From contig CP011212.1 of assembly GCA_001029715.1 (NCBI GenBank), positions 705,066-769,065 of the forward strand: a stretch of 64,000 nt of DNA. The letters are read 5' to 3'. Position 1 is the first letter of the stretch; each line of letters begins with the position of its first letter. The DNA comes from a candidate division TM6 bacterium GW2011_GWF2_28_16. GTDB taxonomy: Bacteria > Patescibacteriota > Microgenomatia > UBA1400 > PJMF01. The notes beneath the pieces were generated by a model. That model worked only from the letters and a program-made list of their open reading frames with translations. It was not told the DNA's origin and made no database searches. Both the position numbers and the translations under genes were made by a program. Of the stretch, positions 2,062 through 56,464 are shown one piece after another.

Positions 2062-3279
2062 ATGCCAGACACAAATCCACAAAAAATCCAAACTGTCTTG
2101 ACTCGCGGAGTCAGTGAAATTCTACCTAATAAAGACGGTCTTAGTAAAATTATGACTGAGAAGAAAATCCGCTTGTATTTGGGAATTGATCCGACCGGAG
2201 CTTTTTTACATTTGGGTCACGCCGTGGGTTTACGCAAATTGCAACAATTTGCAGAACTTGGGCATCAAGTAATTTTATTAGTGGGCAATGGCACCGTTAA
2301 AATTGGCGATCCGACTGGTCGAGATGAAAGTCGCCCAATGTTAGATGACGCTACTATTGAGGAAAATTTCCAAGAATGGAAAAAACAAGCTAGCAAAATT
2401 TTAGATTTTGATCTCATTGAAATCCGCCACAACGGCGACTGGTTAGATAAACTTAATTATGCTGACATGGTCAAATTAATGGCCAAAACCACCGTCCAAC
2501 AACTCATTGAAAGAGACATGTTCCAAAAAAGACTCAATGATGGTTTTCCAATTTTTGGTCATGAAATTATCTATCCACTTTTGCAAGGTTATGATTCTGT
2601 GGTGATGGATGTTGATTTAGAAATTGGTGGCACTGATCAAACTTTTAACATGATGATGGGTAGACACCTGCAACAACAATATAATGGCCATGAGAAATGG
2701 GTTCTGACCACTCCTTTGATCGAGGGCACCGATGGTCGTAAAATGAGCAAAAGTTTCAATAACTACGTTGCTTTAACCGATGAGCCAAGAGAAATGTACG
2801 GCAAACTGATGAGCATTAAAGATGAATTGATTATTAAATATTTTGAAGTTTTGACAGATGTAGACTCAGTGAAAATTTCTGAGATGGCAACTGCCATGCA
2901 AAATGGTAGCAATCCAATGGAATTCAAGAAAAAATTAGCTCTCATTATTACTAAAGATCTTCATGATGAAGTCGTTGCCAATGACGCAGCAAATTTTTTC
3001 GCCAAAACAGTCCAAAACGATGAAATGCCGGAAGAAAGTAATTTTGGCAGTATTACTATTAAAAATATTAAAAAAGCCAATGGCGAAAATGCCAAAAGCA
3101 TTGAAGCTAAACCAGAATTAAGTTCGACCGAATTGGGTCGCCGCATTGAACAAGGTGCCGTCAAAATTTTACCCAGCATGCAAAAAATTGAAAGTAGAGA
3201 AGAGTTTCTTAATTTACCAAAAGGCACTAAATTGAAATTAGGTAAACGCGATTGGTATAAGATAGAAACTACAGACTAA
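2062..3279 (+). CDS. tyrS: Tyrosyl-tRNA synthetase
   Basis: HIGH-type motif (GIDPTGAFLHLGH), LVGNGTVKIGDPTG and KMSKS. 405 aa with a C-terminal S4-like tail. Confidence 0.9.
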   Translation: MPDTNPQKIQTVLTRGVSEILPNKDGLSKIMTEKKIRLYLGIDPTGAFLHLGHAVGLRKLQQFAELGHQVILLVGNGTVKIGDPTGRDESRPMLDDATIEENFQEWKKQASKILDFDLIEIRHNGDWLDKLNYADMVKLMAKTTVQQLIERDMFQKRLNDGFPIFGHEIIYPLLQGYDSVVMDVDLEIGGTDQTFNMMMGRHLQQQYNGHEKWVLTTPLIEGTDGRKMSKSFNNYVALTDEPREMYGKLMSIKDELIIKYFEVLTDVDSVKISEMATAMQNGSNPMEFKKKLALIITKDLHDEVVANDAANFFAKTVQNDEMPEESNFGSITIKNIKKANGENAKSIEAKPELSSTELGRRIEQGAVKILPSMQKIESREEFLNLPKGTKLKLGKRDWYKIETTD

Positions 3280-11278: not shown

Positions 11279-13288
11279 ATGCCTTCTTATAGTTCAGCTT
11301 TTACAAAAGAAACAGACGCCTATTCTGCGCAAGAACAGCAATCTGGAAGTACAGAATTTTCCAAGGGATTATTAAATAGCTTAAAAAGATCTGACTCTCT
11401 CAGAAAAAAAGCTTTTCCAGGATTTTTTGATCGCCAAATTCCACAGGGTCAAAAGAGAGAGCTTGCTACTGATTTTAATAAAGCAGTCAGAGAATATAAC
11501 AGGAACAGACGTAAATTAATTGATATAAGCAAATTTGGCTATGAACCTGGAGTCAAGCTCTTTAGTATCCAAGAAATTTTGGAAAATACAGCCAAAATTT
11601 TTCAAAGGATAGGAGATACTTTATCCAAATATCCAAAAGATCGCACAGAACCTGTTACAAACTCTTCGAGCTTTGATCATTCTTTTGGTGGACAAAGAGT
11701 AAATAAATGGCTAGCTACAGGCTCCATCTTAACAATGGCTACTATATTGGCAAGTTGTACGCCTGAGGCAATTGTTTCCCCTTCACAAGAAGCTCCTGGA
11801 GATCAAGAAAATGATCCCAATTCTACACAAAGCATCATAGATAGCACTAGTGAAGGACAAGAAGTTGACCCAGGCTCACCTGAAGCCACTGAAGTCACCG
11901 CTGCCGAACTTGAAACCCTGAATACAGACATTAACCAAAAAATTGATGAAGCCGTCAAAGTGGCAGAAGAAACCAATCCTGCCGCCGCGGCCCAATTTGC
12001 TGAAAGCAACGGCGCAGAAACCGCCGCTAACATTTTCGCTAACAAACTAGCTGCAGAAAGAATTCTTGATCCCAAAGCTTATGAAATTTCTCTGATTTCA
12101 ACTAGTGGTCAAGCTCGCCTCGAATTAACTGCCGAAAGCCCTTGGGGCGCAGCTGGTGATGTAAGTGTTATTGATACTGGAGAAAAAGACGGCATGTTCC
12201 TATCTCTTGAAGGTGGACTGGAGTCTCTCGGAATAGCTGCCACTCCTGAAAATGTTAAAAACTACGAAATAGTTTTTGATGAGGGAGGTTGGTATGCTGC
12301 CATTAAAGATCAATCTGGAAAAGTTATCGGCGTGGTTGGTCAAGAAAAAAAATGGACAGCTGATATAGAAAATGCCACCGCACTTGAGCCTCTCTTTGAT
12401 ACTTCTAGCGCACTAGATACTTATTTGGAAAGTGGGAGCATTGACACTAGTGAAATGAGCGCAGCAGAATTCGCGGAGTTTAGCAAAGCACTAGCTGAAA
12501 AAAGAAATGAGGATAGGGGAATTAGCGTCGTTGTCTTTGACAACGGAGATGGCAATCCTGCTTATATAGACAATAATCTGGACATGAAACCATATGATGG
12601 CAATCCAGACCAAAGTGAAGTCATTGAAATGTTCTTGCCAGTTGCTGGCAAAGATAGTGCTGGCAACCTTCAGGTTGAACAAGATGGCAAAATCATCACC
12701 ATTAGTAATTCAGCAGATGTTGATTGGAATATGATCGTTACTGATTCAAATGATCCTAGAATTGATTGGCCAACAGGAGACGCTAAAGAAACTCTGAATT
12801 GGATGATAAATGAATATCCAACTGGTCCGGTTGTACTAAAACCAATGATTTTATTAGATAAAACACCACATAGTTTCTTTATCGAAGGATTTGGTATGAA
12901 GGGAGGATTCAAAGTATTGAGCGTGGAAGAAACTGACGCTAATGGCATGCCAATACTATTTAGGGTGTCGCTAGTAGAGCCAGTTGGACCATTATTACTA
13001 GAAGAAGGGACTGACTTAAAACTACGAAGAAATAGTGCAAGCTTGGAAATGAGTAATGATGATAAATTTTTCAGTAATTTACAAACAAATAGTGTTTACT
13101 ATATTGGATTGTCTACTAACGCAGATAAAACTTTTAAAATTAATTTTCCTCGTGTTGATTCCGCAGCACTAGATAATTATCAAGGCATAATAGCTAGTGG
13201 CAAGGCTTTCCCGATACTAACCAATCAAGAAAATGATAAAGAAAACTTTACAGTTTTCTTTACAGATTTATTTTTAAAAAAGAAATAA
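11279..13288 (+). CDS. Hypothetical large membrane-anchored protein (about 145-aa cytoplasmic N-terminus, one TM, about 500-aa extracytoplasmic domain)
   Basis: Single hydrophobic segment WLATGSILTMATILA. No recognisable catalytic motifs. First gene of a plus-strand operon ending in a prepilin. Confidence 0.5.
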   Translation: MPSYSSAFTKETDAYSAQEQQSGSTEFSKGLLNSLKRSDSLRKKAFPGFFDRQIPQGQKRELATDFNKAVREYNRNRRKLIDISKFGYEPGVKLFSIQEILENTAKIFQRIGDTLSKYPKDRTEPVTNSSSFDHSFGGQRVNKWLATGSILTMATILASCTPEAIVSPSQEAPGDQENDPNSTQSIIDSTSEGQEVDPGSPEATEVTAAELETLNTDINQKIDEAVKVAEETNPAAAAQFAESNGAETAANIFANKLAAERILDPKAYEISLISTSGQARLELTAESPWGAAGDVSVIDTGEKDGMFLSLEGGLESLGIAATPENVKNYEIVFDEGGWYAAIKDQSGKVIGVVGQEKKWTADIENATALEPLFDTSSALDTYLESGSIDTSEMSAAEFAEFSKALAEKRNEDRGISVVVFDNGDGNPAYIDNNLDMKPYDGNPDQSEVIEMFLPVAGKDSAGNLQVEQDGKIITISNSADVDWNMIVTDSNDPRIDWPTGDAKETLNWMINEYPTGPVVLKPMILLDKTPHSFFIEGFGMKGGFKVLSVEETDANGMPILFRVSLVEPVGPLLLEEGTDLKLRRNSASLEMSNDDKFFSNLQTNSVYYIGLSTNADKTFKINFPRVDSAALDNYQGIIASGKAFPILTNQENDKENFTVFFTDLFLKKK

Positions 13289-13350: not shown

Positions 13351-13959
13351 GTGAAAAAGAAAATTTTTGTCTCTGTAATTAGTTTGCTTTGTCTACTTGG
13401 ATTAATCTTCTTTTTTTACAATACCTATTCAAAAAATCGTAAACCTAGTGGTACAACAAAGAGACTAGTCTATAATCCAGAATTTTCCAGCTGGGAAGAG
13501 ATTGATTCTTCAAAAGACCCTGTTTCTGAATATGATCGTTCAGACATTCTAAAAAAAGATGACAACCAGAGTGGTCTGCATAATGAGACTGTATTAAAAG
13601 GTTACTTTGATCACTACGATGAAAATAATCAAGAGTTATCAATTAAGTTTTTAGTACCCTTCACTCAAGGTATATTTGAAATCGCCAAGCTGAAATTATT
13701 ACCAAGTCAAACCATTCACTGCGCTCCAGAAACTTATATTGATCCCAATACTGGTAAAAGTTATAGCTTAAAAAAACTAGCTATACCTACCAAAACAGGA
13801 AATACTCTGTGGATTCCAACAGAAGAACCAATTACTTTTGAAAATTTCCTGGCACAAACCAATGAAACAACCTATTTGTACACTCAATTAATTGAAGATT
13901 ATGATTCTCAAAAAATAAACTACGTACAAAAATTAATTGTCATCGGCTTATGCGAATAA
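13351..13959 (+). CDS. Hypothetical membrane-anchored protein
   Basis: N-terminal signal anchor MKKKIFVSVISLLCLLGLIFFFY. Its last 10 nt overlap the next gene. Confidence 0.5.
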   Translation: MKKKIFVSVISLLCLLGLIFFFYNTYSKNRKPSGTTKRLVYNPEFSSWEEIDSSKDPVSEYDRSDILKKDDNQSGLHNETVLKGYFDHYDENNQELSIKFLVPFTQGIFEIAKLKLLPSQTIHCAPETYIDPNTGKSYSLKKLAIPTKTGNTLWIPTEEPITFENFLAQTNETTYLYTQLIEDYDSQKINYVQKLIVIGLCE

Positions 13960-15746
13960 AACTACTCATTAATTTAATGTTTATAGCAATCTTCAGTATT
14001 GCACTTACTCCGTCTGCTATCGCACTCACAGAAGAGGAGATAGCTGAGGCAATAGCCGCTTGTGCAGCTAAAACCACCTGCACAGAATGCACTGGCGTTT
14101 GTGGCACACAGAATTGCACTTATAGCAAAGCTTACACTAGCTATATTTATGATCCACCAACTTATCAAGTTTGTGACTTACAATGTTGGGACCAAAATAT
14201 GGTTGATGCCACTCCCGATGGTGAGTATTGGACTGTTCCTGGACATGAAGATGTGACCTGTACAGAAGAATGTTGGCCTGTTTCTTACAATGATGCAATA
14301 AATCAAAGTTGTATTACAGAATCAGCCAACGATATTCTCTGCAACTGCGATAATCCAACTGACCCTACTCCTACACCCATTGATGGTGAGGGTGGTGGCT
14401 CTACAACTCCAGAAACCATCCCAGATTTATTTGGATTTATAAGTGGCAGAGTACAAGAAGATAACGGAGCTGCATTTAGTGGCAATTTTTGCACTCAGGC
14501 AACTACCAATCCATTAGCTAATAATAATTTTAGTATCACAGCTGGAACATATCCTGGAACTTTTAGTACGACCGCTGTAGGTGCTTATGAATCTATCGTT
14601 CGTGATGGCAGCACCTACACTGTTTCTCTAGATTTATCTAATCAAAATGGCTCCACCGAATATATTTGTTCTTGTCCAGCAGCTGCTGACCCAAATAATC
14701 CTTATCTCTGTCGTTACTATGGCGTAAGCCCAGATACTGCAAATGTTAATTTTTATCTACAAGTTAGCAATCTCTCCAATGACTCTTGGTTTCAAGTCTT
14801 TGGTGGCAATTTATTTAGTCGCTATGGCATAGCTAGTAGCGTACCTGCTACTTCTTGTGCTGCAGATGCTTCCTGCCAAGCTGCTTTATCAGCTTTACCT
14901 CTTGGCTCCAGTAATCAAAACTTCAGTGGTTTTGCAATTAGCAATCTTGCCAATTCTGGCAGTATTATTAGTAGCAGTAGCGAAGGTTTTGATCATTCTT
15001 ATCTTACCCTTGCAGATAGAATTAATAACGTTAATTCTTATGCAGTTAGTACCGATATTAACCAACTATCCTATGATTATTTTTATAAGTTAGTCGAGGA
15101 TGATCTTCATGAATTTAGCAATGGAGAAAACTACGAACCGTTGCTCAGTGATTTAACCGGCAACGCCTGGTGGAGTAGCACCGAAACTAACTTCATCAAG
15201 GTTAACGGCAATGTTAACATAGACGAAACCCAAGGCTTTAATCTTACGAGTGATCAAAGCCTGGTTGTCTTCGTTGAAGGCAATCTAACTCTTGATGACA
15301 GTAATACTGGTGACAGTAATCATAAAATTATCAGCGTTGCGAATGGTGGTTTTCTAGCCTTCTTCGTCAATGGCAACATTTTGGTAAGCGCTGATGTTGG
15401 CTATGAACTTAATCCTGACGTTCCAACTGTCCCAACAGCTTCAGTAGCTAATAGCAATATTGAAGGTGTCTTTATTGCTAATGGGACTTTAACTATTGGT
15501 AATAAATTTGACATTGGAGAGGTCCCTCCAGATCGTAAATTCATCGGTGCAGGCACTTTTGTCGGCTGGACTGGCGTCAATCTAGATCGTACTTTTGACG
15601 ATGGAGTTTTTGGCCCTATTTTAAACAATAATCAAGCTATAGAAAACTTTATTTATCGCCCAGACTTCTTAGCTAACTGGCCAACTAAACTTAAGGCTAG
15701 CTTGAGTAACTGGCGTGAAGTTGATCCTCAACTCATTAATCAATAA
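13950..15746 (+). CDS. Secreted Cys-rich protein, candidate pilus-associated adhesin
   Basis: Signal peptide, then about 20 Cys in the first 130 mature residues, a PTDPTPTP linker, then an Asn/Gly/Ser-rich region with beta-rich (possibly beta-helix-like) composition. Its stop overlaps the start of the downstream prepilin (TAATG). Confidence 0.55.
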   Translation: MRIKLLINLMFIAIFSIALTPSAIALTEEEIAEAIAACAAKTTCTECTGVCGTQNCTYSKAYTSYIYDPPTYQVCDLQCWDQNMVDATPDGEYWTVPGHEDVTCTEECWPVSYNDAINQSCITESANDILCNCDNPTDPTPTPIDGEGGGSTTPETIPDLFGFISGRVQEDNGAAFSGNFCTQATTNPLANNNFSITAGTYPGTFSTTAVGAYESIVRDGSTYTVSLDLSNQNGSTEYICSCPAAADPNNPYLCRYYGVSPDTANVNFYLQVSNLSNDSWFQVFGGNLFSRYGIASSVPATSCAADASCQAALSALPLGSSNQNFSGFAISNLANSGSIISSSSEGFDHSYLTLADRINNVNSYAVSTDINQLSYDYFYKLVEDDLHEFSNGENYEPLLSDLTGNAWWSSTETNFIKVNGNVNIDETQGFNLTSDQSLVVFVEGNLTLDDSNTGDSNHKIISVANGGFLAFFVNGNILVSADVGYELNPDVPTVPTASVANSNIEGVFIANGTLTIGNKFDIGEVPPDRKFIGAGTFVGWTGVNLDRTFDDGVFGPILNNNQAIENFIYRPDFLANWPTKLKASLSNWREVDPQLINQ

Positions 15747-16332: not shown

Positions 16333-16535
16333 GACTCTCGAGGTTTTATACCCCGTGATTTTTTGCAATCGCGAGAAATTGGTTACAAACCTTAGTTCTT
16401 TAATAAGTGAAGAGAGATTTTTGCGGTGAGAACAAATTTATTTTTTAAAAATGGATTTGCCCTCACCGCAATCAAACAAAGTGATGAGGCCAAGAAAATT
16501 TTTTGAACTATTCCAGATATCAAGGAGGTATCTCA

Positions 16536-18163
16536 TGGAAAAGCAAAAAGGATTGTTTTTTGTTGTAGTAGTTGCTGTTATTCTAATTTTTTTAGGAATA
16601 AACAGCGACAATGTTGCAGCCTATGGCTGCAGCATAACAGAGTTTTCGATGACGCCAGAAGGACAGGTTTCATTGGGAACCCACGTTTTTTTGAGTGGAA
16701 AGAGTAGTTGCGCCACCGTGAAATTTACGGTGGACGGAGTTTCCAAAGCTGAAATTGGAACTTCAAACCAAACCGAGACCCTCAAAACTGAGGAGATCGG
16801 AACTGGCACTCATGAAGTCTGTTTTCTTGCGAGAGATAACAGCACCTCTAGTTGGGATAATGTAGCTAAAAGCTGCAAATCTCTATACGTACAAGGCTCC
16901 CAAGGAGCTCCCGCAGATAGCACCGTCAACGGGCATTGCTGGGTAAGCAGTTTTACTGCTTCACCAAGCAAAGTTCAAATTGGACAAAGCATCCAATTAG
17001 CTGGCTACGGTCAATGTGACGGGAATGCTCGTGCAAGTAAATTTTACATTGACGGGAAGTCTTTTGCTGAATTTGGTGGCAACACTAATTCAGCAGCATG
17101 GAATACCAGCGGGTATTCCACGGGAAATCATAAAGTTTGCTTCTTAATAACGAGTGGTGAATGGAGTGATGCGGCTAAAAGTTGCACCACTGTAACTCTT
17201 AAGAAAGAGGAGCAGGCTTCAAATCCCCCTGCACAAGGTGGATCTTCAGATAATAGAGATTCTGGTAACGACTCAAGCTCCAGTAGCTCATCTAACTCAG
17301 ATAGCTCATCCAACAACAATCCATCGTCAAGCTCTACCTCTCAGACTTGCCTAAAACATGTCGAGCCTTTCTCCGCAGGAGACCTTGGAGAAGTGACCCC
17401 TGGTGCTTCGAATAATCTCCGTTCTTGTGCAGGATTATCCTGTAAAAAAATAGGGGAAATTCCAGCCGGAGGACAATTTGAAGTGCTCAAAGGCGCGCAA
17501 TGCGTCGATGGGTACTGGTGGTGGAAAGTAAAATACGGCAACCTAACTGGCTGGACTGCTGAAGGTAATGCTCAGAAAGCATGGCTGATTAAAGCAGGAA
17601 CCAATCAAACTGCTAATAACAATTCTGATATCCAGAAAGATATTACCGTAAACATCTATTCTGACCACTGGAGAACAACATATAAGTTCTTGGTAAATAC
17701 AAGAACTTGTTCTATCACCAATGGTGCCGAAATAATTTCGAAAGAGATTAAATATTTCGACAACCGAATAGGACAGTTAGAACCTGATAAAACAGCAGGT
17801 TCAAGATTTGTTCTTTATTTTGCAGAAAATACTGGACAATCAGAAATATTTCGCAAAAAGGTTGAGAGTGAAATAAAAGAGGTAACAAATTGCTATAGAA
17901 TCTACTACAATGTTGGCAAAACCACTATGGACAGCTCTGGATTGGGGAATGTTCTTTTTGGATACGCCATGGCAAAAATCCCAAAGTGGACGGAGGATAG
18001 AATATCAGATTTATTTCAAGGTTTAAATAAAGATTCGCTGGGATGGATATTTGATAATTATGATGATGGAAAACAGCGTGAGCTCGGAAGAATTTTATCC
18101 GAACAAAGCAATTTTTCCACATCAAATGTAGAAAAAGTAGCTTGGGATATAGATCTAAATTAA
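16536..18163 (+). CDS. Membrane-anchored surface protein with a Ser-rich linker and a bacterial SH3-like domain
   Basis: Start reassigned to the ATG at 16536, preceded by AAGGAGG. The ORF-track start at 16451 lies inside a 10-bp inverted repeat. TM segment FFVVVVAVILIFLG, poly-Ser tract, SH3b-like GGQFEVLKGAQCVDGYWWWKVKYGNLTGWTAEG. Confidence 0.55.
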
Positions 18164-40212: not shown

Positions 40213-40671
40213 TTAAGACTCGATAGCATAACGCTCAAATCTACTCAGAGTCATCTTTTCACCAATTTTACCACTGAGAGTTTTGATAACTAATTCGATT
40301 GTTTTTTCTGAATCCTTAATGGAATCCTGTTGCAATAAATCCTCAACGCTTTCTGCACCCATAGCAGCAACTTGCATAGCAATGTCACGCACCATTTGGC
40401 GGAATTCTTCATTAGCGGCTACAAAATCAGTTTCGCAAAGCATTTCCACCATAGCGGCAACCATGCCAGTGTTGTGAGTATAAGTGGCTATATAACCAAC
40501 CTTAGTCTCACGATCCTGAATCTTGTCTGCTTTAGCTAAACCTTTGGCCTCAACAGCAGCAACGGCTTTATCTAAATCGCCATCAGCTTCTTGCAAAGCT
40601 TTTTGACAATCTAAAATTCTAGCACCAGTAAGTTCTCTGAGTTTTTTGATTTGATCCATGGAAATAGGCAT
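40213..40671 (-). CDS. tsf: Elongation factor Ts (short, about 150-aa form)
   Basis: N-terminal UBA-like QIKKLRELTGARILDCQKALQEADGDLDKAV, TDFVAANEEF motif, AGGAGG RBS. Follows rpsB. Confidence 0.85.
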   Translation of the reverse strand: MPISMDQIKKLRELTGARILDCQKALQEADGDLDKAVAAVEAKGLAKADKIQDRETKVGYIATYTHNTGMVAAMVEMLCETDFVAANEEFRQMVRDIAMQVAAMGAESVEDLLQQDSIKDSEKTIELVIKTLSGKIGEKMTLSRFERYAIES

Positions 40672-51890: not shown

Positions 51891-52316
51891 ATGCGAAAAG
51901 AAATTCTTTTAGCGATTTTTGTAGGCATCACCCTCGGCTTGATGATCACTTTTGGAATCTATCAAAATTCTGAGAATGCCAAAACTGGACAAAATAACGA
52001 TACCGATCAACTAATCAATAATCCAGTTGGTAGTGAATCAGCAGCAATTCAAGATCCTCAACTAATGATTAATAGTCCAGAAGAAGACTTCTTCACTAAT
52101 GAAGAAGATTTAATTGTTTCAGGCAGCGCTTCTCCTAATAGTTTTGTTGTTGTTCTCGTTAATGATAGCGAAAGTATTAGTAATACTGATGAATCAGGCA
52201 ACTTTTCTATAAAAGTTAAACTTAATGAAGGTGGAAATTTGATTGAAATTAACAGTATTGATGAGGATGGTAAAAAAATCAGCAAACAAAGAACTGTCAT
52301 TTATGAAGTTAAATAA
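51891..52316 (+). CDS. Hypothetical membrane-anchored protein with a C-terminal beta-sandwich-like domain
   Basis: N-terminal TM LLAIFVGITLGLMITFGIY. Its stop overlaps the next gene. Confidence 0.45.
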   Translation: MRKEILLAIFVGITLGLMITFGIYQNSENAKTGQNNDTDQLINNPVGSESAAIQDPQLMINSPEEDFFTNEEDLIVSGSASPNSFVVVLVNDSESISNTDESGNFSIKVKLNEGGNLIEINSIDEDGKKISKQRTVIYEVK

Positions 52317-53022
52317 TAATAAACTCACTCGCAAAAAAATCCTGCTTTTGCTATTAGCATTTGGCATTTTTTTATTGCCGGCTAGATTAGTTTTTGCACA
52401 AAACAGCGCCACAGACAGCTCAAATAGTGCTACTCAAAAAGAGCAAGAAAACGAAAATAGTACTATCAATAATATTAAAAAAGTTATTCAAGAAAAGAAG
52501 ACTGAGCTCGGCACTGTTGGAGCTAATTTGCGTAGTGAAAGAGCTTATTTAGCCAAAGTTCTACGTGTTAGTGAAGAAACCCTGACGGTCAGTAATTACT
52601 CTGGAAGTAAAATTATTCCTCTAGAAGAGGACATTGTCATTCAGAAAAAAGACAAAGATGTTAAAGTTGAAGAACTTGCCGTCGATAATTGGGTTGGCGT
52701 TTATGGAGAAATGAATAATGATAATTTAAAAATTAAGAAAATCGTTGTCTATGATCATGACTTTAGCCCAAAAAACAAGATCATTACTCTTGGATCAATT
52801 GCTAGTATTGGTAAAAACGATCTAGCACTTGCCCCCCGCTCTGGAGAAGAAAAACTCAATTTCAGTTTTGATAAATACACTAGTTTTCAAGATAACCAGG
52901 GAGAAGAAATTGATTTTAGCGATTTTTACGAAGACTTACAGTGCATTATCGTTGCCTTCGAAGATAAAAACGGCAATTACGTAATCAGCACAATTAAAGC
53001 TTTAAGTGCTTTTGAAAAGTAA
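52303..53022 (+). CDS. Hypothetical secreted protein
   Basis: Start reassigned to the in-frame ATG at 52303. Signal peptide MKLNNNKLTRKKILLLLLAFGIFLLPARLVFAQ. Confidence 0.45.
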   Translation: MKLNNNKLTRKKILLLLLAFGIFLLPARLVFAQNSATDSSNSATQKEQENENSTINNIKKVIQEKKTELGTVGANLRSERAYLAKVLRVSEETLTVSNYSGSKIIPLEEDIVIQKKDKDVKVEELAVDNWVGVYGEMNNDNLKIKKIVVYDHDFSPKNKIITLGSIASIGKNDLALAPRSGEEKLNFSFDKYTSFQDNQGEEIDFSDFYEDLQCIIVAFEDKNGNYVISTIKALSAFEK

Positions 53023-53302
53023 ATTCCCTCCAATGACTATTATTTAACTTTTCATTGAGCGAATAAATTTCCTGTATATCTGGTCTTCCCAATCTATTCC
53101 AAAGCTCTTCTGCTCCAATTTTTATTAAAGCAGTGGCAAGTTCTTCTTCTGAAAAAGTTATTTGCCCTTCTTTGAGTTTATCGCTAAGAACTGAACGCAA
53201 ATCATTAAGCGTGAAGCTTCTAACTCCAGCTAACTCTAAAACTTCCTCTAATGAATAATTACTTGAATTTCTCTCCAAACTTTTTTCGAACATGTTTGAC
53301 AT
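52994..53302 (-). CDS. Hypothetical protein (ORF trimmed so it does not overlap the tRNA)
   Basis: The track ORF extends through tRNA-Ala. The internal Met (MSNMFEKSLER) gives a 102-aa product. Confidence 0.3.
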   Translation of the reverse strand: MSNMFEKSLERNSSNYSLEEVLELAGVRSFTLNDLRSVLSDKLKEGQITFSEEELATALIKIGAEELWNRLGRPDIQEIYSLNEKLNNSHWREFTFQKHLKL

Positions 53303-53336
53303 ACTAACATGTTGAAATATAAATTTGCAAATTCTG

Positions 53337-53410
53337 TGGACCGAAGGGAAATCGAATCCCTGACCTCTGCAATGCGAATGCAGCGCTCTAGCCAACTGAG
53401 CTATCGGCCC
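53337..53410 (-). tRNA. tRNA-Ala (anticodon CGC)
   Basis: Reverse complement GGGCCGATAGCTCAGTTGGCTAGAGCGCTGCATTCGCATTGCAGAGGTCAGGGATTCGATTTCCCTTCGGTCCA. G3:U70 pair. Anticodon loop UUCGCAU. Confidence 0.85.
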
Positions 53411-53448
53411 GTTTCAGATAAATAGTATATCACCACAGACCTTTAAAT

Positions 53449-53594
53449 TTGACCAAAGCCTTTAGTTGTCCTATAATAGTCCAGAATGCAAAAACAAAAT
53501 GCAAAAGCTCCAGCTTTTCATCATCACTCCTCTATCTAATTGGGGTATCTTTTTGCGTTTCATTAAATAGGTCCCCAATAAGGGGATTTTTTAT
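53449..53594 (+). promoter_or_regulatory. Candidate hisS attenuator: consensus sigma70 promoter, His-codon leader peptide, and alternative antiterminator/terminator hairpins
   Basis: TTGACC-17 nt-TATAAT at 53449-53477. A 17-codon ORF at 53486-53539 contains CAT-CAT-CAC. ATTGGGG (53539-53545) can pair with CCCCAAT (53573-53579). CCCC/GGGG terminator stem is followed by TTTTTTATTTT (53572-53594). hisS starts at 53632. Confidence 0.5.
53486..53539 (+). CDS. Putative hisS leader peptide MQKQNAKAPAFHHHSSI
   Basis: Three consecutive His codons immediately upstream of alternative hairpins. It starts 8-9 nt after the -10 element, so it would be near-leaderless. Confidence 0.4.
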   Translation: MQKQNAKAPAFHHHSSI

Positions 53595-53631
53595 TTTAGA
53601 ATACAATTAGACCAAACAAAGAAAGAAAAAT

Positions 53632-54894
53632 ATGAACAAAAATGTACAAACACTCAAAGGCTTTCGCGACTTCCTCCCAGACGAGGCTCGCAAAAGACAA
53701 TACGTTAACGACAAGATTAGAGAAACTTTTGAAGTTTATGGCTTTGCGCCACTTCAGAGTCCTACCTTGGAGTACGCTAGTTTATTGCTTGGCAAATATG
53801 GTGACGAAGCTGATAAATTGGTTTATACCTTTGAAGATCGTGGTGGTCGTGAAGTTGGTTTGCGCTATGACCAAACTGTACCAACAGCCCGTATTCTGAG
53901 CCAATATCAGAACGAATTGCCTAAATATTTCCGTCGTTACCAGATTCAGAATGTTTTCCGTGCCGATAAACCACAAAAGGGCCGTTATCGTGAATTCACT
54001 CAATGCGATTGTGATATTTTTGGTGGCAACAGCGTTTTGGCTGATGCGGAATTATTAGCTACGGTTAACGCTGTTTTTATGAATCTAGGTCTTAAATCAA
54101 TCAAGATTGAATTTAATGATCGTACTTTACTAATAGAAAACATTAGTCCTTTTGTTACTGAAAAAGTTGATGTTTTTTCCATCATTCAAAGCATTGATAA
54201 ATTGGATAAAGAAAGTAGCGAAACCATCATTGAAGAATTAGTTGATAAAGGTCTTTCTAGAAGCAATGCTGAAGCTGTTTTATCCAAGATAAATAAGATT
54301 GAAATATCAGGAAATCTATCTAGAATTGAGCAAAAAGCTTTGGAGTTAGGCGTCAGTAAAGAAACCCTCGTTTTTAACCCAAAACTAGCTCGCGGTTTAG
54401 ACTACTACACTGGCTTAATTTTTGAAATCAAAATTCCAGAATATGGCAATTCATCTGTTGGCGGAGGTGGTCGTTATGACAATCTGATTGAAGAGCTTTC
54501 CGGCTACAAAATGCCAGCCGTAGGCGTTGGTCTTGGCTTTGATCGCATTGTCGAAGTTTGCGATCAATTGGGTTTAATTAAAGAAAACCAAACTGGAACT
54601 CAAGTGATGATTGGTTTTTTTGAAGAAGAAAATTGTCAAAATAAGGCTATGCAAATCGCTAAAGAACTTCGTGCTCTAAAAATTAGAACCGAAGTCTTCC
54701 CTGCTTATGACAAGCTTTCTAAACAGTTTAAAGTCGCTGAACAAAAGAAAATTCCTTTCGTAATCGTGGTTGGTGAAGATGAAATCAAAGAAAATAAATT
54801 TACTATCAAAAACATGGCTTCTGGCGAGCAGGAATTACTAGCTCTTGAAGAGATTAAAGGAAAATTCAAGGTTTTTTCCCCTTCACTTCTATAA
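53632..54894 (+). CDS. hisS: Histidyl-tRNA synthetase
   Basis: N-terminal LKGFRDFLPDEARKRQYV, class II motifs (FRADKPQKGRYREFTQCDCDIFG, GGGRYDNL), C-terminal anticodon-binding domain. Confidence 0.95.
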   Translation: MNKNVQTLKGFRDFLPDEARKRQYVNDKIRETFEVYGFAPLQSPTLEYASLLLGKYGDEADKLVYTFEDRGGREVGLRYDQTVPTARILSQYQNELPKYFRRYQIQNVFRADKPQKGRYREFTQCDCDIFGGNSVLADAELLATVNAVFMNLGLKSIKIEFNDRTLLIENISPFVTEKVDVFSIIQSIDKLDKESSETIIEELVDKGLSRSNAEAVLSKINKIEISGNLSRIEQKALELGVSKETLVFNPKLARGLDYYTGLIFEIKIPEYGNSSVGGGGRYDNLIEELSGYKMPAVGVGLGFDRIVEVCDQLGLIKENQTGTQVMIGFFEEENCQNKAMQIAKELRALKIRTEVFPAYDKLSKQFKVAEQKKIPFVIVVGEDEIKENKFTIKNMASGEQELLALEEIKGKFKVFSPSLL

Positions 54895-55023
54895 ATTTGT
54901 GCTATGCACAGCATCTTTCGTAGCAGCTGTCCGAAATTCGCTAAAGCATCTTTCGTACCAGCTGTTTTTTTGCAATGTGAACCTTGCAAAAAAACAGGGT
55001 CCGAAATATAATAACCCTTCTAT

Positions 55024-55371
55024 ATGAAACAAGGTATACATCCTAGCAACTGGCAACACGACTGCGTCGTTACTTGTAGTTGTGGTAATTCCTTCCTCAC
55101 TGGAGGCATTAAAAAAGCCGTACAAATCGATATTTGTAGTGCTTGTCATCCTTTCTTTACTGGTGAAATGAGATTTGTTGATCGTCAAGGTCGCGTAGAT
55201 AAATTCCAGAAAAAGATGCAACTTGCTCAAGCCGCTGCCACTGCAGCTGCCGCTAAAACCAAAAAAGCTACTAAGACTAAAGTCGAAAATAAATCTTACA
55301 AACAGATCTTAGTTGAACAGCAAAGCGAATTAAAGGCTAAAAAACAAGCCGAAACTGTCGCCGAAAATTAG
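55024..55371 (+). CDS. rpmE: 50S ribosomal protein L31 (Cys-containing type) with an Ala/Lys-rich C-terminal extension
   Basis: MKQGIHPSNW...CSCGNSF...ICSACHPFFTG matches L31. 115 aa versus about 70. Confidence 0.9.
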   Translation: MKQGIHPSNWQHDCVVTCSCGNSFLTGGIKKAVQIDICSACHPFFTGEMRFVDRQGRVDKFQKKMQLAQAAATAAAAKTKKATKTKVENKSYKQILVEQQSELKAKKQAETVAEN

Positions 55372-55393
55372 TTTCCCTTTTTTATTTATTGAT

Positions 55394-55417
55394 ACAGCCA
55401 CTGCGCTGTGTTTTTTT
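55394..55417 (+). terminator. Rho-independent terminator after rpmE
   Basis: ACAGC-CACTGC-GCTGT followed by GTTTTTTT. A TATAAT for prfA follows. Confidence 0.6.
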
Positions 55418-55441
55418 GTATAATAGAAAGGAAAAATAAAT

Positions 55442-56464
55442 ATGGATCAAAACTACAACCCCTACCAAGTCCAAATAGAAAATATAGATAAAGCCATTGC
55501 CGAAAATCAAGCTCTGCTTGAAGATGATGAGCTAAAAGATTTAGCTATCGAAGAAATCGCTCGTCTTCTTGAAGAAAAAAAAGCTATGGAACTGGCAGCT
55601 ACAAATTTTGCCAGCAATCAAAATAAAAGTGAGAGCAATGATAGCGAAGAAATTACTGAAAATGCCAACGCCATTATCGAAATTCGTGGCGGTGCTGGGG
55701 GTGACGAGGCAAAAATCTGGGCCAACGATTTAATGCGCATGTACACTCGTTATGCCGAAAGTAAAAATTTAAAAGTAGAGCTAATTGATGAATTAGTTTT
55801 TAAAGTCAAAGGCCGTGCAGAACTACCTATCGTCGAAATTGATGAAGACGGTAAAGTTAATAAAACTGGTGAAACAGAAATTCTCTCTGCTTATAAGCTT
55901 TTTCGTTATGATTCTGGCGTACATCGCGTTCAAAGAGTACCTAGTACCGAATCGGCTGGACGTATTCACACCTCCACTGCTTCTGTGGCGGTTTTACCAG
56001 AAGTCACAGCCACAGCTGTCGAAATTAGAGAAGAAGACCTAGAATGGTCGTTTATGCGTGCTGGCGGTGCTGGCGGACAATCCGTCAATAAAACTAGCTC
56101 AGCCGTTCGCTTGGTTCATAAACCCAGCGGTTTAGTGGTCAATTCTCGCACAGAAAGAAAACAAGCCCAAAATCGCCAAATTGCTTTGGAACTTTTGCGC
56201 TCACAGCTTTGGCAAATTGAAGAAGATAAAAAAGACGCTCAAATTGGTGAAGCCAGAAGTAATATCGGTCGCAACATGCGTGCTGAAAAAATTAAAACTT
56301 ATAATTACCCCCAAAGTCGTGTTACAGACCACCGTATTCATCAGTCTTGGCATAATTTAGAAGGTATTTTAGAGGGTAATTTAGATGAATTAATCGCTTC
56401 AACTAAATCTTTAATCGAAATTGATGAAAAAAGCGATAACGAAAAAGAAATAGAGCAAAATTAA
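55442..56464 (+). CDS. prfA: Peptide chain release factor 1
   Basis: GGQ motif (RAGGAGGQSVNKT) and the RF1-type P-x-T tripeptide (PST). 340 aa. Confidence 0.9.
   Translation: MDQNYNPYQVQIENIDKAIAENQALLEDDELKDLAIEEIARLLEEKKAMELAATNFASNQNKSESNDSEEITENANAIIEIRGGAGGDEAKIWANDLMRMYTRYAESKNLKVELIDELVFKVKGRAELPIVEIDEDGKVNKTGETEILSAYKLFRYDSGVHRVQRVPSTESAGRIHTSTASVAVLPEVTATAVEIREEDLEWSFMRAGGAGGQSVNKTSSAVRLVHKPSGLVVNSRTERKQAQNRQIALELLRSQLWQIEEDKKDAQIGEARSNIGRNMRAEKIKTYNYPQSRVTDHRIHQSWHNLEGILEGNLDELIASTKSLIEIDEKSDNEKEIEQN

Follow-up and report, generated by a model that had tools for sequence, protein, structure and literature searches.

Introduction

Leader-peptide attenuation is textbook biology for the his, trp, phe, thr, leu and ilv operons. 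We analyzed a 64,000-nucleotide stretch of a Patescibacteria genome (GenBank assembly GCA_001029715.1, contig CP011212.1, positions 705,066 to 769,065 of the forward strand; hereafter the window), in which hisS, the gene for histidyl-tRNA synthetase (HisRS), is preceded by a short open reading frame (ORF) with a run of histidine codons. Among synthetase genes, classical attenuators are known for pheST, and Streptomyces trpS and leuS are predicted to have them (PMC1262725). In bacilli, a His leader has been predicted upstream of a hisS paralog (hisS*) and of hisZ (Naville and Gautheret 2010, PMC2965389), and his operons of some Firmicutes have predicted His-leader attenuators as well (PMC9413887). 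Leaderless polycysteine short ORFs form attenuators in mycobacteria (bioRxiv 10.1101/834739), whose cys leaders lack obvious terminators according to PMC1262725. Our comparative sequence analysis makes it highly likely that the ORF in the window belongs to a leader-peptide (ribosome-mediated) transcription attenuator that sets hisS transcription by the supply of charged tRNA-His; HisRS would thus very probably be made only when charged tRNA-His runs short.

With hisL of Escherichia coli and Salmonella (RF00514), the window leader has in common a short ORF in which His codons lie in tandem, hairpins that offer a choice of terminator or antiterminator and, as proposed here, control by ribosome stalling when His-tRNA is scarce; among the related hisS loci (labeled Lnnn), the leaders of L055 and L060 also head his biosynthesis genes. 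It differs in having no RF00514 match, three His codons against the seven of hisL, no Shine-Dalgarno sequence in front of a probably leaderless ORF, hisS alone as its target, and a host from the candidate phyla radiation (CPR). The gamma-proteobacterial pheST operon (pheM leader peptide) and Streptomyces trpS and leuS offer the same arrangement of a synthetase gene under a leader rich in codons for its own amino acid, in which poor charging raises synthesis; they involve other amino acids and other phyla and have no sequence relationship to the window leader, whose HisRS product moreover lacks its cognate residue. The hisS*/hisZ leader of bacilli, predicted by comparative genomics, likewise places a His-codon ORF and a premature terminator before a hisS-family gene. 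However, its targets are paralogs linked to histidine biosynthesis while the housekeeping hisS uses a T-box, whereas the target here is a bona fide HisRS gene, and the window-type element belongs to an unrelated lineage and probably arose independently. The mycobacterial short ORFs also lie at the 5′ end of the transcript, carry a run of the sensed codons and control downstream operon genes, but they sense cysteine, and the window leader has a clear intrinsic terminator; its leaderless status is read from promoter spacing only. Finally, the T-box leader of hisS in Bacillus and Lactobacillales has in common with the window leader the regulated gene, the tRNA-His charging signal and the choice between terminator and antiterminator, but a T-box binds tRNA directly without need of translation, and the window leader has no T-box features.

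Full-text literature searches found no published description of the element in CPR/Patescibacteria. The class being known, with nothing published for this group and no matching Rfam family (see below), the element is new within a known attenuator class. The first-pass annotation of the locus, made from the sequence alone, had known of no such attenuation for hisS; the bacillar prediction for a hisS paralog takes away part of that claim. What appears to be new here, and is well supported by the sequence comparison, is the way in which a probably leaderless ORF, control of a synthetase gene and a His-free regulon come together in a phylum whose cis-regulation is essentially uncharted.

To our knowledge, almost nothing is known of gene regulation in CPR/Patescibacteria, which are mostly uncultured and probably depend on imported amino acids. 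A conserved, covarying attenuator would provide a concrete, testable cis-regulatory element for these bacteria. It would imply that, in these organisms, the coupling between transcription and translation is tight enough for ribosome-mediated attenuation to operate, and it would show how an organism probably reliant on imported amino acids tunes a synthetase to tRNA charging.

The hisS leader in the window

The first-pass annotation had read the region upstream of hisS as a TTGACC-17-TATAAT promoter, a 17-codon ORF with three consecutive His codons, two complementary segments (ATTGGGG and CCCCAAT) and an intrinsic terminator with a U-tract, and each of these elements is present (Table 1). The promoter (53449-53477) matches 11 of 12 consensus positions and is the top sigma-70-like site within 52000-56000. 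The ORF extends from an ATG at 53486-53488 to a TAA at 53537-53539. Its terminator had been placed 38 nt before the hisS start, which is roughly right, as the ATG at 53632 lies 42 nt past the stem and 34 nt past the U-tract. In sequence, the terminator reads AGGUCCCC-AAUAA-GGGGAUUU (53569-53589) followed by UUUUUUAUUUU to 53597, with an energy of -10.6 kcal/mol. At 100% identity, the downstream HisRS matches that of Candidatus Pacebacteria bacterium GW2011_GWF2_38_9 (CPR/Patescibacteria).

The leader promoter is adjoined upstream by a tRNA-Ala(CGC) gene on the minus strand (53336-53410), which is transcribed away from the leader. With this gene as the sole upstream neighbor, the only plus-strand transcript reaching the hairpin should begin at the TTGACC/TATAAT promoter, and a role of the hairpin as terminator of a convergent or upstream gene was ruled out. 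The same tRNA-Ala(CGC) gene is kept upstream of the leader in many related loci, mostly on the strand opposite hisS. Conservation in the promoter region also extends beyond the hexamers, for example AAATTTGACCAAAAAGCC..ATACCCTATAATA (window 53440-53480; L001-L006, L016, L036 and L059), which could reflect an additional protein-binding site or merely recent common ancestry.

Table 1. Features of the hisS leader region (window coordinates; sequence tokens such as MQKQNAKAPAFHHHSSI denote leader peptides or RNA segments)
Feature	Position	Strand	Evidence
-35 hexamer TTGACC	53449..53454	+	Promoter-site scan; TTGAC also upstream of the leader in most relatives
-10 hexamer TATAAT	53472..53477	+	Promoter-site scan; 17-nt spacer to -35; 8 nt to leader ATG
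Segment A (5′ end including AUG), 5′ arm of long-range stem A:A′	53484..53494	+	Minimum-energy fold and covariation
Leader ORF, 17 codons + TAA, peptide MQKQNAKAPAFHHHSSI	53486..53539	+	Sequence reading; kept upstream of hisS in 45/80 species
Small hairpin AAAAGC-UCCA-GCUUUU within the ORF	53503..53518	+	Fold; covariation
Regulatory His codons CAT CAT CAC, codons 12-14	53519..53527	+	His run or cluster in every leader
Segment 1, ACUCC (His14 and Ser15 codons), pairs with G-run 53542-53546	53526..53530	+	Fold and covariation
Segment 2/B, AUUGGGG (core 53539-53545) with extension, antiterminator 5′ arm	53539..53555	+	Constrained folds, duplex tests
Segment A′ (UUUUUGCGUUU), partner of A in the predicted 'off' state, overlaps the extended antiterminator	53550..53560	+	Fold and covariation
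Antiterminator 3′ arm including CCCCAAU (53573-53579), overlaps the terminator 5′ arm	53564..53579	+	Constrained folds
Intrinsic terminator, stem 53569-53576/53582-53589, loop AAUAA, U-tract to 53597	53569..53597	+	Hairpin scan, fold, covariation
hisS, regulated gene, 420-amino-acid HisRS without any histidine	53632..54894	+	ORF and translation

Conservation of the leader across Patescibacteria

We compared the window with 80 hisS loci from different species-level genomes, nearly all of them metagenome-assembled genomes of Patescibacteria, whose HisRS are 83-51% identical. A leader ORF of 15-25 codons with HHH, HHHH or HHxH, followed by a terminator, was found in 45 of these loci (HisRS 83-52% identical), including most of the closer relatives and many distant ones. 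This comparison had been suggested in the first-pass annotation as a check on the His codons and pairing segments; the leader recurs, and its pairings are kept within each lineage. The leader peptides include MQKQNEKVLSFHHHSSI, MQKDNVKASAFHHHLSI, MSNNSTQPVAAHHHHA, MLQNTILLATHHHSHI, MLNIAVISAHHHTLLC, MTTQIVITTHHHHTLD, MKSFILRSAVHHHAHHM and MTQSYRKILAIHHHSLHTVGVFSRK. Their N-termini are unrelated among lineages (compare MQKQNAKAPAFHHHSSI, MLQNTILLATHHHSHI, MSNNSTQPVAAHHHHA and MTTQIVITTHHHHTLD), and outside the His cluster it is the spacing and the RNA pairings, not the peptide, that are conserved. Covariance-model searches added leaders in L025 (MFEIFKLTSKTHQHFHLMAV), in L050/L066 and in L035, and eight further leaders lie 0.8-2.6 kb upstream of hisS, where they head operons. 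The 31-codon ORFs with HH in L035 and L047 lacked a terminator and were discarded as spurious (the genuine leader of L035 is a different one). Likewise, an HHHH ORF in L046 was not counted, as it has a promoter but no terminator and is followed by a 526-amino-acid ORF with 3.6% His.

The association with hisS is strong and specific. ATG-initiated ORFs of 10-30 codons bearing HHH occur 25 times in the 500 nt that precede hisS, summed over 81 loci and about 40 kb of strand, and 21 times in the remaining approximately 1.14 Mb of strand, where at least 8 are the same leader further upstream of hisS. This corresponds to a more than 30-fold enrichment over background, and it is confined to histidine: triplet runs of H were found in 25 loci, those of the next residue (L) in 6. 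The start codon is ATG in 33 of 34 leaders, and all 34 contain tandem or clustered His codons, 2-6 in number and mostly 3-4. CAT and CAC interchange freely (77 and 41 occurrences, respectively). In a relative with a 98% identical HisRS, the sole substitution within the ORF is a synonymous change of CAT to CAC in the second His codon, and its flanks carry several changes and indels. Neither tRNA-His nor any other tRNA gene was found between leader and hisS in the long-spacer loci, the only tRNA gene being the syntenic upstream tRNA-Ala(CGC).

These data bear on whether the ORF could instead encode a functional His-rich micropeptide with its own terminator, hisS being transcribed independently, or resemble an attenuator by chance. 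His-rich peptides may bind metal, and a weak terminator could merely end a small gene, but a peptide conserved for its own function is hard to reconcile with sequences that diverge freely outside the His cluster while spacing and RNA pairings persist, with an ORF tied so specifically to hisS and his genes, and with a promoter scan that found no promoter-like site in the 34 nt between U-tract and hisS. Chance is excluded by the enrichment statistics, and we regard this pair of explanations as barely credible.

Leader geometry and a predicted leaderless start

In 30 of 33 relatives, the leader ATG lies 4-10 nt (mode 8) past the end of a -10-like hexamer, and 17 of these hexamers are perfect TATAAT. 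The gap leaves no room for a Shine-Dalgarno sequence. From this promoter spacing, in the window and in its relatives, the ORF is probably leaderless or nearly so, with a predicted transcript start at about 53484-53486, some 7 nt past TATAAT.

Between 8 and 12 codons (median 11) precede the His run. The antiterminator's 5′ arm (B) follows the run at a median distance of 11 nt (interquartile range 10-12), and the stop codon lies on that arm or up to 27 nt past it. The gap between the His run and B matches the reach of a stalled ribosome, and a ribosome that is translating or at the stop codon would be expected to cover segment 2. Every lineage keeps the His codons in the reading frame of the ATG 4-10 nt past the -10 box, and an in-frame stop lies near the G-run.

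The terminated fold and its covariation

The unconstrained fold of 53484-53631 has an energy of -28.9 kcal/mol (z-score -2.36). Its minimum-energy form is composed of the A:A′ stem, the inner hairpin, a hairpin between the His14/Ser15 codons and the G-run, and the terminator. A first covariance model, built from nine close relatives and the 'off' structure of the window, located distant leaders at the expected positions, and a second, built from 19 sequences, was used to align 36 leaders. In this alignment, 84.8% of cells in the 'off' fold form standard pairs, compared with 43-56% when the 3′ partners are slid by 1-3 columns. Changes on both sides occur in 26 of 30 pairs, against 8-17 for the slid partners, and the covariation score is 0.462 against at most 0.114. 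None of 500 shuffles reached the observed values, and the 19-sequence alignment gave similar results.

The support extends to each helix. In the 36 leaders, A:A′ is 87% paired with 9 of 10 pairs compensatory; in a duplex test of own against cross-locus partners, none of 5000 permutations was as good. The terminator stem is 96% paired (6 of 8 pairs compensatory), and the terminator itself was found in 33 of the 36 leaders first examined, with a G+C-rich hairpin and U-tract in nearly all leaders. The 1:2 hairpin is 80% paired with 4 of 5 pairs compensatory (80-90% and 2-4 of 5 over the alignments), and the inner hairpin is the weakest helix, 71% paired with 6 of 6 pairs compensatory. The leader thus contains an anti-antiterminator pairing that involves the regulatory codons (53526-53530 with 53542-53546), and this His14/Ser15:G-run pairing, enclosed by A:A′, is a further covarying 'off' structure beyond those in the first-pass annotation. 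The covariance model R2 could be used to annotate the element in metagenomes and to propose an Rfam family.

No known RNA family accounts for this structure. A search of the whole window against Rfam 15 at the gathering threshold returned three tRNAs only. Within 53300-53750 there was no match to T-box (RF00230), His_leader (RF00514) or any other relevant family even at E up to 10, the best match being a sub-threshold L20_leader (23.9 bits against a gathering score of 58.7). In 40 related loci, no family matched the leader at the gathering threshold, so that a T-box or other known RNA family was ruled out. We therefore consider it very unlikely that the leader is a translation-independent RNA sensor, either T-box-like and reading uncharged tRNA-His through CAU/CAC or another riboswitch, with an incidental ORF. 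Such a sensor would be in keeping with the T-box control of hisS in Firmicutes (PMC2965389) and with the leader's structured, strongly covarying fold. It conflicts with the negative Rfam searches, with His codons held in frame between ATG and stop in every lineage, with 2-6 tandem or clustered His codons in place of a single specifier, and with a leader length of only about 110 nt.

Lineage-specific antiterminator pairing

The first-pass annotation had proposed ATTGGGG/CCCCAAT as the antiterminator and folding as a check on whether it can compete with the terminator. These 7 bp alone reach -8.6 kcal/mol and fall short of the terminator, but the pairing becomes competitive in an extended form. 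With the His codons and everything 5′ of them masked, the best fold was an extended antiterminator (53539-53579, -14.1 to -15.6 kcal/mol) with the helices AUUGGGG:CCCCAAU, AUCU:AGGU and UUUG:UAAA; with the stop-codon position masked, only the terminator formed.

The sequences of the two arms differ among lineages, the pairs being AUUGGGG/CCCCAAU, AUGGGGG/CCCCCAU, GAAGGGG/CCCCUUC, GGGAGUUGAU/AUCAAACUCCC, AGUGUGGG/CCCGCACU and GGGAUGGU/ACCAUCCC. The pairing register also differs, and in fixed columns of the broad alignment the window's helix is barely more paired than a one-column slide (see below). We therefore used an alignment-free test, in which own and cross-locus pairs are compared by the energy of the duplex that the terminator 5′ arm forms with the 30 nt behind the His run. 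Among 19 lineage representatives, own-pair duplexes had -15.7 against -12.5 kcal/mol for cross pairs, and 1 of 20000 permutations was as good (shared ancestry uncorrected); on all 33 loci, none of 5000 permutations was as good. These sequence comparisons do show that each independent lineage keeps an antiterminator pairing. The attenuator proposed in the first-pass annotation is thereby borne out: His-run ORF, terminator and lineage-specific antiterminator are kept together in dozens of species despite differing sequences.

Proposed mechanism and its difficulties

The elements, their conservation and spacing, the covariation of the 'off' fold, the antiterminator complementarity, the link to His genes and the His-free products are seen in the sequences themselves; the transcript start, leader translation, ribosome stalling and the switching itself are inferred. 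In the proposed mechanism, the leader AUG (53486) would lie no more than 2 nt from the 5′ end of the transcript and be translated without a Shine-Dalgarno sequence. When His-tRNA is plentiful, or when no ribosome is present, the G-run (53542-53545) would be covered by a ribosome at the stop codon (53537-53539) or paired with 53526-53530, the 5′ end (53484-53494) would zip onto 53550-53560, and the free C-run (53573-53576) would pair with 53582-53589 into the terminator, halting transcription at the U-tract before hisS. When His-tRNA is scarce, the ribosome would stall at codons 12-14 and cover segment 1, leaving the G-run exposed past its leading edge. AUUGGGG with its extension could then pair with CCCCAAU and its flanks (53539-53579), the terminator would be blocked, and polymerase would enter hisS.

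This would follow classical logic: transcription terminates when 1:2 and 3:4 form and reads through when 2:3 forms, the His codons being part of segment 1. The A:A′ stem would be an addition to the classical model, as it encloses the leader ORF and buries the 5′ AUG. Since it overlaps the extended antiterminator, A:A′ should act as an anti-antiterminator, and it could limit re-initiation.

Several points weigh against this interpretation. The leader was not detected in 35 of the 80 related loci. A third-codon-position excess was looked for as a sign of coding within the close group and was not seen: variable sites are evenly spread over the codon positions, at 7, 8 and 6 of 17. The covariance model had itself fitted the alignments behind the 'off'-fold counts to that structure. 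In fixed columns of the broad alignment, the window's extended antiterminator is 61.9% paired against 61.2% for a one-column slide, and the alignment-free test on which its support rests ignores phylogeny. The best antiterminator duplex lies below the terminator hairpin energy in 33 of 33 loci, but duplex energies lack loop penalties and the two are not strictly comparable. Finally, with A free and a ribosome on the His codons, A:A′ plus terminator (about -18 kcal/mol) beats the antiterminator (about -15) in nested folds. Because of this thermodynamic preference, read-through would need kinetic control, steric exclusion or a second ribosome on the AUG. Under kinetic control, the local 2:3 helix would nucleate before the long-range stem closes around the ribosome. 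The 11-codon spacer approximates one ribosome footprint.

The same energies invite the suggestion that the leader senses His-tRNA but acts through an output beyond intrinsic termination, such as Rho-dependent termination, mRNA stability or closure of the AUG by A:A′. The strong covariation of a stem that sequesters the AUG and the 100-300 nt of extra sequence between terminator and hisS in several relatives would suit such an output. However, nearly all leaders retain a canonical G+C-rich hairpin with a U-tract, 96% of the stem cells being paired, and the segment that pairs with the terminator 5′ arm is held at a fixed distance from the His codons. We consider an output of this kind unlikely, and prefer attenuation through the intrinsic terminator.

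Leader-type regulation does not appear to be a general mechanism for synthetase genes in this genome, since tyrS (2062-3279) has neither leader ORF nor terminator. When the whole window was scanned for the same layout (-10 box, ATG, short ORF and terminator), no further ORF with a residue run came up.

His operons in relatives and a proposed histidine-free regulon

Among distant relatives, hisS can also be the last gene of an operon that begins with a leader of this kind. In L060 (447-4236), the leader is followed by genes for a HisG-like protein, histidinol dehydrogenase (HisD) and HisRS, and in L055 (1004-4260), by genes for HisG, a class I/II aminotransferase that fits HisC, and HisRS. In L057 (2295-2987), a gene for a 230-amino-acid DapF-like protein lies between leader and hisS; in a search of solved structures this protein scores best against histidine racemase (9cr1, E = 1.9e-9), and Pfam gives no hit for it. 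L073 (2195-2983) has a separate 262-amino-acid gene, which is like the L057 gene in position and whose product has no significant Pfam match. In L051 (2058-3989) and L058 (1816-3753), a domain of similar length without a Pfam match is fused to the N-terminus of HisRS (643-645 amino acids), and here the likeness to L057 is one of length and position. The arrangements in L060 and L055 suggest that the hisS-only layout of the window is a reduced form of an ancestral his operon. The first-pass annotation had called an attenuator unexpected in a reduced genome; the presence of the element is confirmed, and the operons of relatives offer a plausible reason, as the window leader may be a retained operon leader.

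The products under the leader are poor in the amino acid that would be sensed. HisRS has no His in 41 of 45 leader-bearing loci, and the mean number of His per HisRS is 0.09 with the leader against 0.74 without it (Mann-Whitney p = 7e-4). For comparison, window proteins of at least 200 amino acids average 1.36% His, only 2 of 41 have none, and His is present in the HisRS homologues of solved structure. Like HisRS, the HisG-like, aminotransferase and racemase-like proteins encoded behind the leader are devoid of His; HisD has 4. A His-free regulon induced by shortage of His-tRNA fits the proposed signal: as the induced mRNA has no His codon, HisRS could still be made during the shortage. HisRS and its co-regulated proteins would thereby offer a clean example of the removal of a cognate amino acid from a starvation-induced regulon.

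Taken together, the observations allow a broader reading, which we judge possible but slightly short of probable. The window leader would belong to an unrecognized, widespread family of leaderless His-leader attenuators in Microgenomates/Pacebacteria-type CPR, in which the AUG-closing stem serves as both anti-antiterminator and limiter of re-initiation. The regulon (HisRS, HisG, HisC-like and histidine-racemase-like proteins) would have been purged of histidine, and the window leader would be a his-operon relic kept for hisS after the loss of the biosynthetic genes. If this is true, the leader would supply the first evidence from sequence that CPR use coupled transcription-translation and leaderless initiation as regulatory devices.

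Other observations

Two further elements were seen around hisS. A palindromic repeat of the form TTTCGGACC-[variable AT-rich hairpin]-GGTACGAAAGATGC, in 1-3 tandem copies, some without the inner hairpin, and in either orientation, lies at 54909-55006 of the window, between the hisS stop (54894) and the rpmE ATG (55024). It is found in the same place in L001 and L059, and between the leader terminator and hisS, in opposite orientation, in L007, L010, L023 and L030. It had no Rfam match, and 54909-55006 is its sole site within the 64-kb window. Its occurrence in either orientation suggests a DNA element resembling a repetitive extragenic palindrome (REP) or miniature inverted-repeat transposable element (MITE), or a bidirectional hairpin. 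The second element is an insert, some 170 nt long and bounded by inverted repeats of 13-14 nt (CTTTAACTTTAATC ... GATTAAAGTTAAG), located between the leader terminator and hisS in three species (L002, ~2810-2990; L005, ~45-225; L081, ~800-990). A MITE-like insertion and a second structured RNA domain are both conceivable.

Elsewhere in the window, a short ORF on the minus strand (40213-40254, MTLSRFERYAIES) follows a -10-like box at a distance of 10 nt and precedes a strong terminator (AAGCCCGCU...AGCGGGCUU and a T-run), but has no residue run; the leader covariance model matched this site weakly (E ~0.7), probably through the terminator alone. Three consecutive large plus-strand ORFs (11279-13288, 13950-15746 and 16451-18163; 669, 598 and 570 amino acids) had no NCBIfam match at E up to 1e-10.

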